Positions 40,848-41,431 of a DNA stretch of 64,000 bases are shown here, in pieces; the first letter of the stretch is position 1; each line of letters begins with the position of its first letter. The notes beneath the pieces are model-generated. The model saw only the letters and a program-made list of their open reading frames with translations, had not been told where the DNA came from and did not search any database. Position numbers and translations under genes: made by a program. The DNA is from Escherichia phage T5: sequence record NC_005859.1, one strand, 5' to 3'.

Positions 40848-40899
40848 TTTAAGTATTTTTAAGAACTCTCGTAAAAACTCTTAAAAATACAGACGATAC

Positions 40900-41080
40900 C
40901 GGGAGAGTCATAAGTCTCACTCATTAAGTATTTCAAGACAAAATACAGTAACGTCTATTATTTTCCAGTTTATGTCAAGGTGACTATACTTACTTATGCA
41001 TATAAGGTCGCCATCTGGCAGATTACTCATAAGTCTTATAAAGTAAGTATTCCAGTTTAAGTCAAGGTGACTTAGTGGTT
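40900..41080. repeat. two direct-repeat units in a non-coding region
   Basis: CTCATAAGTCT...AAGTATT and CCAGTTTAWGTCAAGGTGACT each occur twice ~86-120 bp apart. Confidence 0.6.
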
Positions 41081-41431
41081 ATACACTGCATATACGAGTG
41101 CTCGGTTAGGTTAGGGTCATGACTCCCTACCTTTTGCTGCCCTCAACAGGAGTTATCGCGCGTTTACCTGTATGTTGTGCACCATTAGTCACGACTTTCA
41201 CGTGATCCTTTCCCACTTTGTTGGTAGCTTGAAAAACTACTCCGATATGGAGGAAAAACTTCACTACCTAGAATACCTTCTAAAGTTCTTCTTTAGCCTG
41301 GACATAGTTAAATCGTAATAAAACTATTCAGCAGACTGGTTGGTTAGTCTGGAACCAACTACCGCGTGGTTTAGGCAGTGCGCAACTAACCTCGGAAGCT
41401 TTTACGTTAAAAGCACCAGTTATCCAGTTCT

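Follow-up and report, generated by a model that had tools for sequence, protein, structure and literature searches.

In the tRNA-rich part of the genome of Escherichia phage T5, some 580 bp of DNA separate a tRNA-Arg gene from a tRNA-like element (positions 40848-41431 of the window, i.e. the whole 64,000-nucleotide stretch of record NC_005859.1 that was analysed here), and the locus raises the question of whether this apparently empty interval has a product of its own. A first-pass annotation, made from the sequence alone, described it as non-coding DNA between two tRNA genes, carrying two direct repeat units that occur twice each, and suggested that it may encode stable small RNAs or hold protein-binding sites. 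The present analysis shows that the interval belongs to a conserved, folded, non-coding RNA gene, rnaX, located on the strand of the tRNA genes between a strong early-type promoter and tRNA-Arg. That rnaX is a functional structured RNA gene is considered highly probable, while the explanation as a whole, in which the source of the repeats and the route of RNA processing are included, is judged to be probable to a lesser degree.

The region is rnaX, a name present in GenBank since 2004, as is apparent from identity of both locus and sequence. In a megablast comparison against phage genomes, window positions 40700-41600 were 100% identical to Escherichia phage T5 AY587007 (record position + 79 = window position) and to the T5 tRNA-region record AY734508. 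The latter record carries a misc_RNA feature, named rnaX or RNAX, at record positions 7168-7886, corresponding to window positions 40848-41566 on the minus strand (719 nt), of which positions 40848-41431 represent the 3' four-fifths. The 3' limit of the feature in AY734508 is the first base before tRNA-Arg, and its 5' limit is situated at promoter P16-17. The orthologous feature of Salmonella phage 5 (AJ604531) bears the note "stable RNA with unknown functions", and rnaX is also annotated in phages DT571/2 and BF23 (NC_042564); in AY587007, the interval is left unannotated and the tRNA-like element is flagged as a pseudo-tRNA. The database entries provide the name and the note on function only, and the structural model and its coordinates are the contribution of the present study; a search of the literature library that was accessible yielded no paper on RNAX or on T5 stable RNAs.

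Both flanking elements named in the first-pass annotation, tRNA-Arg(tct) and the tRNA-like element, were recovered on the minus strand by ARAGORN and Rfam (Table 1). The description of the region as lying between two tRNA genes is thus correct as regards the flanks, but the tRNA-like element is an internal domain of rnaX, carried on helix P1. Furthermore, the region is not a free-standing interval, since it belongs to one annotated transcript together with the tRNA-like element. Similarly, the suggestion of stable small RNAs is upheld with respect to a non-coding product, described as a stable RNA in GenBank and possessing a minus-strand fold backed by covariation, but the product is one large RNA of 719 nt.

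Conservation and predicted fold of rnaX

The comparison across T5-like phages that was proposed in the first-pass annotation revealed that the region is conserved and that it carries compensatory changes in excess of those in controls. By blastn, the region was detected in 502 phage records (Salmonella, Escherichia, Klebsiella, Shigella, Citrobacter, Pectobacterium and others), with the conserved sub-segments differing between phages, and a search with the version of Klebsiella phage Sealy retrieved 524 phage records. Homologues are present in four genera, Tequintavirus, Epseptimavirus, Sugarlandvirus and Hongcheonvirus, and the loci that were compared include those of Yersinia phage phiR2-01 (Epseptimavirus), of Sealy, SEL21 and Shaphc (Sugarlandvirus) and of Pectobacterium phage DU_PP_V (Hongcheonvirus). 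All loci display a common layout, in which the promoter is followed by a 5' domain, a GGGGUGYSGAA motif, the tRNA-like domain, 420-730 nt of conserved blocks (GCUAAACCAC, AGUGGGA, GGAGUCAUGACC and AGUCACCYUGACUUAAACUGGAA) and a 38-nt hairpin, after which tRNA-Arg is found, in some phages preceded by one or more inserted open reading frames (ORFs). The 5' domain measures 31 nt in T5, 178-194 nt in most Tequintaviruses and up to 473 nt elsewhere, or its place is taken by an HNH endonuclease gene, and the size of rnaX ranges from 719 nt in T5 to approximately 1.3 kb in Klebsiella phages. Pairwise identities among 20 representatives range from 53 to 97%, and the core blocks are kept in DU_PP_V at approximately 55% overall identity. 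Across the four genera, the pattern of conservation is mosaic, with invariant blocks alongside hairpin modules that can be exchanged.

The 5' domain of rnaX and the nearby promoter give way to an HNH/homing-endonuclease ORF in several Epseptimaviruses, and in some a 510-nt ORF separates the 3' hairpin of rnaX from tRNA-Arg (Table 1); the rnaX core is kept despite both the replacement and the insertion. Pattern scans of IMG/VR for the 23-nt element A5 and for the 3' hairpin identified 27 and 31 contigs, respectively, all T5-like and of 104-123 kb, with the exception of a 14.5-kb fragment of the BF23 tRNA region, while a metagenome scan identified eight contigs, all of types already sampled. More distant homologues, beyond the T5-like phages, were not detected by BLAST with the Sealy and DU_PP_V versions, by the two IMG/VR pattern scans or by the metagenome scan.

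In silico folding of the minus strand (40848-41572) gave a structure of -202 kcal/mol (z = -4.26), and none of 20 shuffled sequences was as stable; the corresponding value for the plus strand was z = -2.04. RNAalifold, when applied to the full 20-sequence MAFFT alignment, predicted 62 pairs, 27 of which display compensatory changes. Because the variable modules misalign in the whole-length alignment, in which the structure is only partly recovered, three blocks were analysed separately (a crude all-against-all scan of column pairs was too noisy for use). In all three blocks, the covariation score was reached by none of 500 shuffles, and 90.8-95.7% of the cells were paired, compared to 31-57% in slid controls, with 18, 9 and 12 pairs changed on both sides in blocks I, II and III, respectively. 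Altogether, covariation was tested for more than 90 base pairs, which belong to at least a dozen helices. Additionally, numerous G.U pairs occur in blocks I and III in the minus-strand sense only, and the minus strand is thus the RNA sense, since these pairs would be A.C on the other strand. By this comparative evidence, the predicted helices are maintained by compensatory changes and rnaX is a structured RNA of the minus strand. Its architecture, as modelled from the alignments, is from 5' to 3' a variable 5' domain, helix P1 with the tRNA-like domain, hairpin P-a with a variable region, a central domain, element A5, a three-way junction and a 16-bp terminal hairpin (Table 1).

Table 1. Predicted elements of rnaX and neighbouring features; positions refer to the window unless a locus is named
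Feature	Position	Strand	Description
Early promoter P16-17	41580-41608	minus	-35 TTGCTA, 17-nt spacer, -10 TATAAT; consensus scan, 10/12 matches
5'-terminal hairpin	41537-41578	minus	Inverted repeat I1, 17-nt arms, 88% complementary; paired in minimum free energy (MFE) fold
Helix P1, 5' strand	41510-41523	minus	RNAalifold; 5' of tRNA-like domain
tRNA-like domain	41431-41504	minus	ARAGORN; Rfam RF00005, 38.3 bits, above gathering score; pseudo-tRNA in AY587007
Helix P1, 3' strand	41415-41428	minus	RNAalifold; inside 40848-41431
Hairpin P-a	41398-41414	minus	GCUUUU AACGU AAAAGC; 5 pairs, 95.8% paired
Hairpin GUUGGUU-CCAGACU-AACCAAC	41339-41359	minus	Compensatory G:C to A:U in GSW6, bobsandoy and SB13 (alignments)
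Central domain	41075-41216	minus	Closed by helix Ha (GUGG 41213-41216 with CCAC 41075-41078); RNAalifold; holds Hb, Hd, He and Hf
Hairpin Hb	41188-41207	minus	3/7 pairs compensatory, 98.7% paired
Hairpin Hd	41147-41170	minus	CAGG/CCUG stem; apical loop with self-complementary CGCGCG at 41157-41162
Hairpin He	41108-41132	minus	Conserved loop AGUCAUGA; palindrome GUCAUGAC at 41116-41123
Hairpin Hf	41083-41101	minus	3/7 pairs compensatory; pair 128:144 is UA 4, CG 3, AU 2, UG 2
Element A5, copy a (repeat D2 copy 2)	41050-41072	minus	AGUCACCUUGACUUAAACUGGAA; adjoins central domain
Lineage-specific insert, 64 nt	40986-41049	minus	10-nt perfect terminal inverted repeats 40986-40995 / 41041-41050 (I10); hairpin in MFE fold; holds D1 copy 2
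Element A5, copy b (repeat D2 copy 1)	40963-40985	minus	Adjoins three-way junction; aligned with junction by model R1
Three-way junction	40891-40956	minus	Outer helix 40947-40956 with 40891-40900; hairpin i 40928-40946; CUUAAU linker; hairpin ii 40903-40918
3'-terminal hairpin	40853-40890	minus	16 bp, inverted repeat I5; ends 5 nt before tRNA-Arg
tRNA-Arg(tct)	40773-40847	minus	ARAGORN and Rfam tRNA, 49.3 bits; 5' end sets annotated rnaX 3' end; co-transcribed
SPFH/Band 7 membrane protein gene	39791-40738	minus	Pfam PF01145, E 9e-18; downstream of rnaX and tRNA-Arg, co-transcribed
HNH/homing-endonuclease ORF	L005 1744-2226; L008 1573-2055; L009 1497-1979; L049 716-1198		Epseptimavirus loci
510-nt ORF between rnaX 3' hairpin and tRNA-Arg	L006 676-1185; L008 477-986		Epseptimavirus loci

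The 5'-terminal hairpin is all that remains in T5 of the variable 5' domain. The 5' end of the rnaX transcript (41537-41587, minus strand), which contains this 17-bp hairpin, overlaps 'repeat c copy 3' of AY587007, and sequences 80-85% similar to it occur at other T5 early promoters (the P22 and P15a regions). Block I (alignment A3, 20 sequences) comprises 32 pairs of P1, the tRNA-like stems and P-a, of which 90.8% of cells are paired, compared to 31-43% in slid controls, and 18 pairs are compensatory (covariation score of 0.371, against 0.05-0.08 for slid controls). P1 itself consists of 12 bp with 98.7% of cells paired, and seven of these pairs changed on both sides (e.g. A:U in 9 and C:G in 9 sequences, or C:G in 9 and G:C in 9). 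The apical pair of P-a is AU in seven, CG in seven and UA in four sequences, with a further change from CG to GC in Sealy.

The tRNA-like domain has an intact T arm, a 3-bp 'anticodon' stem with a 6-nt loop and, in most relatives, U.U and G.A mismatches in the acceptor stem. The anticodon assigned by ARAGORN is a different one in every relative (Ser-act in T5, SeC-tca, 'aa', Leu-tag in DU_PP_V and Ser-cga in phiR2-01), or no call is made. A decoding tRNA was consequently rejected, in view of the lack of a canonical 7-nt anticodon loop and of a conserved anticodon. In SE18, STG2 and GSW6, a shorter element replaces the tRNA-like domain and P1 is kept. Judging from these features, the domain looks like a structural tRNA mimic which is mounted on P1, rather than a boundary of the region.

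Block II (alignment A8, 11 main-type sequences) covers the central domain, for which 30 pairs were assessed: 95.7% of cells are paired, compared to 38-49% in slid controls, and nine pairs are compensatory, compared to none or one in these controls. Helix Ha, which closes the domain, is invariant in the main type and reads AUGG/CCGU in DU_PP_V. The arms of Hb are UCACG..CGUGA in T5, and UGACAU/AUGUCA, UGGCAU/AUGCCA or UCACAU/AUGUGA in relatives, while the stem of Hd is longer in other lineages (CUAGGAAG/CUUCCUAG, AUAUGC/GCAUAU). In He, three of eight stem pairs are compensatory and 95.5% of cells are paired.

The apical loops of He and Hd are both self-complementary. The He loop palindrome GUCAUGAC is kept in all 20 representatives, and that of Hd persists, with changed sequence, in six of seven lineages: CGCGCG in T5, UCGCGA in the main type, CUCGAG in the bobsandoy type, GUGCGCAC in SenS3 and phiR2-01, CCGCGG in Sealy and GUGCAC in DU_PP_V, with S124 and STWB21 retaining CGCG only. 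When the Hd loops were shuffled, a palindrome of the same or greater length arose with a probability of 0.007-0.24 per lineage, the lineages being related to each other. The number of palindromes per sequence did not differ significantly from shuffles, and it is the positional persistence in the Hd loop alone that is suggestive. In partition-function folds, the mean unpaired probability is 0.86 for the He palindrome and 0.61 for that of Hd, compared to a background of 0.40. Palindromes of 6-8 nt do not fold on themselves, but they permit pairing between two copies of an RNA, as in retroviral dimerisation sites, and the two loops would, speculatively, permit self-association of rnaX. Alternatively, GAGUCAUGAC of the He loop can pair intramolecularly with A5 (GUCA[CCU]UGACUU), both being nearly invariant. 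An intramolecular partner for the Hd palindrome near the ACGCGG motif was rejected upon inspection of the alignment, as no covariation was observed.

For the 3' part of rnaX (block III), a covariance model, R1, was built from 15 seed sequences, with no T5-type sequence among them. In the T5 window, R1 matched positions 40849-40987 with 80.7 bits (E 1e-17), the sole strong match in 64 kb; T5-type sequences scored 78-85 bits and DU_PP_V scored 49 bits. In the 30-sequence alignment of this block, 95.2% of cells are paired, compared to 36-57% in slid controls, and 12 pairs are compensatory; the alignment was fitted to R1, which favours the model. The T5-type rows, absent from the seed, supply many of the compensatory changes (e.g. 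G:C in 16 and C:G in 12 sequences, or G:C in 16 and A:U in 12). In the three-way junction, within which D1 copy 1 is located, eight of the ten outer helix pairs are compensatory and the CUUAAU linker is conserved, and its topology recurs in MFE folds of several lineages. The 3'-terminal hairpin, with 99.8% of cells paired and with strand-specific G.U pairs, is the most sequence-conserved element of rnaX, being 90-100% identical even in DU_PP_V. Candidate partners for A5 are its own 5-bp hairpin, GAGUCAUGAC of the He loop and the 5' GGGGUG, all of which are nearly invariant.

A scan with Rfam 15, which had likewise been proposed in the first-pass annotation, was informative in a negative sense only: at E<=1 over 18 kb, and at E<=10 for the 761-nt T5 region and its 1321-nt Sealy homologue, tRNA was the only family matched, with no GOLLD or ROOL. 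A transfer-messenger RNA was rejected, as ARAGORN reports none in the window or in the loci of relatives, and the occurrence of GGA motifs, as in a CsrA sponge, was equal to the composition-based expectation in a rough hand count.

Transcription, processing and possible function

On the basis of its sequence, P16-17, a promoter of the sigma-70 early type that is annotated in AY734508 at window positions 41554-41628, is the promoter driving rnaX, tRNA-Arg and the SPFH gene. No minus-strand terminator was called in a terminator scan. The 3' hairpin was rejected as an intrinsic terminator, since it is AU-rich and followed by UUAAA instead of a U tract. All 23 tRNAs called by ARAGORN in the window are encoded by the minus strand. 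An Rfam tRNA-clan match without an ARAGORN call is located at 37089-37163 (minus strand, 38.2 bits; tRNA-Ile in AY734508), and sub-threshold matches were observed at 29181-29252 (minus strand, 26.7 bits) and at 30512-30642 (minus strand, 24 bits, spanning 131 nt). Additionally, a small 'RNA3' is annotated beside tRNA-Asn in AY734508.

It is proposed that transcription yields an rnaX-tRNA-Arg-SPFH RNA in which rnaX comes first, and from which rnaX would be released by tRNA-processing nucleases, with the RNase P cut at the 5' end of tRNA-Arg generating the annotated 3' end in T5. The 16-bp terminal hairpin would protect this 3' end, and would also mark the end of the RNA in those phages that have an ORF directly after it.

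The right end of the T5 st0 deletion is mapped at window position ~41878 (AY734508), from where the deletion runs leftwards for approximately 8 kb, beyond rnaX, thereby removing rnaX, tRNA-Arg and the SPFH gene. As the st0 mutant is viable, rnaX is dispensable for laboratory growth. Similar deletions of approximately 8 kb in the tRNA-rich region arise spontaneously, are viable and change the sensitivity to retron defences (PMC11555353).

Dispensability in the laboratory would also be in line with a role of rnaX in cis, as a spacer or leader whose hairpins, in the manner of RNase III or RNase E sites between phage early genes, only direct processing and stabilise tRNA-Arg and the SPFH mRNA, the excised RNA being a by-product. 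The co-transcription with tRNA-Arg and the Band 7/SPFH gene without a terminator in between, and the location of the most conserved element, the long 3' hairpin, just upstream of tRNA-Arg, fit this explanation. It is nevertheless considered unlikely, since the architecture is kept whole in the many relatives with ORFs (327-510 nt) between rnaX and tRNA-Arg, in Sealy, where the downstream genes differ, and in DU_PP_V, which is without the SPFH gene. Furthermore, the more than 90 tested pairs and the unpaired blocks and loops that are conserved in four genera exceed the needs of a processing site, and stable RNA is the term chosen by the GenBank authors.

The mechanism proposed instead is that rnaX acts in trans, as an accessory host-interaction RNA that would be needed in natural hosts and not in the laboratory. 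An action on tRNA-related factors is suggested by the tRNA mimic on its helix, the tRNA-rich accessory location, the conditional dispensability and a GatB/YqeY-like neighbour. rnaX might serve as a scaffold or decoy by which the tRNA mimic is shown to a tRNA-binding host or phage factor, possibly with self-association via the two apical loops; this is a guess, rated as less likely than not. The neighbour, ORF076 (41617-42051, minus strand), is located directly upstream of the rnaX promoter and matches PHROG 1460, 'tRNA amidotransferase' (GatB/YqeY-like), with E 4e-41, while no Pfam family was matched. Its gene is found upstream of rnaX in the examined Markadamsvirinae loci that extend that far, is missing in Sealy, and a homologue was not identified in DU_PP_V. 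The ORF076 product may be a tRNA-binding partner of the tRNA-like domain.

As an enterobacterial counterpart of the large phage RNAs GOLLD and ROOL, rnaX could also be imagined as an RNA-only machine that self-assembles into dimers, rings or cages via the loops of He (UCAUGA/GUCAUGAC) and Hd, although the likelihood of this is rated as low. Such an assembly would display or enclose the tRNA-like domain and, during infection, would act on host processes that are directed at tRNAs, for instance defence by anticodon nucleases or the modification or repair of tRNAs.

Direct repeats and the 87-nt insertion

Both repeat units reported in the first-pass annotation were confirmed, as the patterns D2 and D1 match exactly twice each in 64 kb, and only here, compared to 0.00 and 0.01 matches expected from dinucleotide-preserving shuffles. 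The copies of D2 (TTCCAGTTTAWGTCAAGGTGACT) at 40963-40985 and 41050-41072 are identical at 22 of 23 positions and lie 87 nt apart, while those of D1 (TCATAAGTCT..TAAGTATT) at 40908-40935 and 41027-41054 are 79% identical over 28 nt. A reading of the repeats as an array of protein-binding sites, or as repeated functional units, was not borne out. All 19 aligned relatives carry one copy of the 23-nt element, A5, which is nearly invariant in 18 of them and altered but recognisable in DU_PP_V. In pairwise BLAST comparisons, relatives align to 40773-40985 and then to 41050-41559, sharing A5, and thus possess one A5 and 87 nt fewer than T5. The second copy is tied to this 87-nt insertion, which is composed of a 64-nt hairpin insert and the additional A5. 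Among 50,697 phage records, only eight contain the insert, and each of them has it at this locus (two T5 records, Tennessee, KookSpook, C13 and three fragment records); the other 19 aligned representatives lack it, as do most of the relatives collected. Three records under other names, OR847704 and OR848805 ('Listeria phage LM 4-11-1 / 4-14-1') and MG065692 ('Campylobacter phage C13'), contain a T5-type rnaX sequence (90-94% identity) that includes the 64-nt insert; mislabelling, or contamination with DNA of a T5-like phage, is the probable reason.

Both neighbouring domains still adjoin an intact A5, the central domain at 41050-41072 and the junction at 40963-40985, and the fold on both sides can thus be kept. 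D1 reflects a likeness of the start of the insert to the junction approximately 120 nt downstream, and the local alignment between the insert and this junction was matched or beaten by 56 of 2000 shuffles (p ~0.03), which weakly suggests that the insert arose through internal duplication of a part of rnaX, with deletion and divergence thereafter. As read from the alignments, the repeats are a lineage-specific insertion of T5 and a few close relatives and not part of the functional core.

The perfect 10-nt terminal inverted repeats of the insert (I10), the flanking 22/23 direct repeat (D2) and its clean presence or absence in close relatives could alternatively point to a miniature mobile element which inserted into A5 and duplicated a 23-bp target. 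This origin of the repeats appears quite improbable, as there is one copy per genome with no other locus in the 50,697 phage records, the insert is weakly similar to the adjacent rnaX junction, and a target duplication of 23 bp would far exceed in length those of known bacterial transposable elements. The insert was consequently not classed as a miniature transposable element. The rnaX of DU_PP_V (locus L046, 2315-2350) contains two copies of a 9-nt direct repeat of its own, CGAUGGUGC, which is lineage-specific; copy 1 holds the loop palindrome GUGCAC, and both copies flank a short CGCAA/UUGCG hairpin.

A more radical alternative would be that the region is decayed DNA, consisting of tRNA remnants and scars of mobile elements, in which the repeats are DNA-level protein-binding or recombination sites and conservation merely reflects recent ancestry. 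This would agree with the mosaic make-up of the tRNA region in T5-like phages, near which homing endonuclease genes are found, with the degenerate tRNA that adjoins the interval, and with the separate conservation, in different phages, of modules of 74-170 nt. However, a tRNA gene within 40848-41430 was rejected in the absence of any ARAGORN or Rfam RF00005 call, even at E<=10, and the 74-170-nt modules were rejected as decayed tRNA genes, as no tRNA was called in them in T5 or relatives. Moreover, the compensatory changes preserve pairing on one strand only and the core blocks persist in the divergent DU_PP_V, while the repeats cannot be conserved functional sites since nearly all relatives are without them. 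The decayed-DNA explanation is thus largely refuted by covariation and retains very little probability.

That the region encodes one or more small proteins can practically be dismissed: pipelines annotate hypothetical proteins of 33-61 aa in some relatives (GEC_vB_N3, SB13) and T5 has ORFs of up to 48 aa (plus strand; 45 aa on the minus strand), but, in agreement with the first-pass annotation, none is credible, as the ORFs of 20 representatives vary in strand, frame and length and are 'conserved' only where they overlap the tRNA-like sequence, substitutions are spread evenly over codon positions (28/26/32 for 86 variable columns of an 11-sequence alignment), and 1-nt indels, not multiples of three, are common.

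A number of points weigh against the explanation offered here for rnaX. Elements A4, A5, Ha and most of the 3' hairpin never vary, and covariation can therefore not pick their pairing partners. The family is narrow, and the covariation derives from perhaps six to eight independent lineages. The label of a stable RNA rests on the GenBank note, while the processing route and the mature ends are inferred from knowledge of tRNA operon processing. The dispensability of rnaX is equally compatible with a weak or conditional role, and support for an origin of the insert by duplication is weak.

Comparison with known systems

In kind, the closest counterparts of rnaX are GOLLD and ROOL, the large ornate RNAs of phages, but it is a member of neither. 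GOLLD is a large phage RNA found by tRNA genes, with a universally conserved 3' part, a poorly conserved 5' part and, in some cases, a tRNA in the linker (10.1101/2024.12.08.627333). rnaX shares with it a size of more than 600 nt, a structured nature, a location beside tRNA genes in a phage genome, the conserved 3' and variable 5' parts and a tRNA unit in the linker, a likeness that concerns layout only. Membership of GOLLD (RF01998) was rejected, as no covariance-model match was obtained at E<=1 over 18 kb or at E<=10 on the T5 and Sealy sequences; there is no match in sequence or structure, the helices differ, rnaX occurs in lytic siphoviruses of enterobacteria, and its oligomerisation is hypothetical. 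ROOL is abundant, non-essential and thought to act as RNA only (10.1101/2024.12.08.627333). At approximately 580 nt, ROOL is similarly a phage or prophage RNA near tRNA islands, but membership (RF03087) was rejected for want of a match in the same scans, and ROOL is without an embedded tRNA-like domain.

The stable RNAs of the T4 tRNA cluster (species 1 and 2, or rnaC and rnaD) are RNAs of approximately 120-140 nt that are co-transcribed with tRNAs and freed by tRNA-processing enzymes. Compared by description only, their cluster context is similar to that of rnaX, which is five to ten times larger and multi-domain. YrlA, a bacterial Y-RNA-like RNA of approximately 100-300 nt with Ro60/Rsr as its partner, carries a tRNA-like module on a long helix formed by flanking sequences. 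In rnaX, a comparable module (T arm, acceptor-like stem and reduced anticodon arm) is borne by P1, but tRNA was the only Rfam family to score, and the neighbourhood is without an rsr gene. In the DIS, the kissing-loop dimerisation site of HIV-1, the loop palindrome is GCGCGC or GUGCAC; the apical loops of rnaX hold GC-rich palindromes of 6-8 nt that change by lineage but remain self-complementary, and its dimerisation is hypothetical.

Large structured RNAs of phages and bacteria (GOLLD, ROOL, OLE, raiA) are a recognised open problem, and most of the hosts known for them are difficult to handle experimentally. With rnaX, an RNA of 0.7-1.3 kb with similar genomic habits is found in T5, a phage that infects E. 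coli K-12, for which rnaX-less mutants are at hand (st0 and the tRNA-rich-region deletions) and which already serves studies of tRNA-based evasion of defence systems. rnaX is missing from Rfam and from most modern annotations of T5-like phages, in which the locus is left blank or filled with spurious small ORFs, and the structural model could correct the annotation of several hundred phage genomes. If the self-assembly of rnaX proved true, a tractable model phage would furthermore offer a way into the function of this whole class of RNAs.

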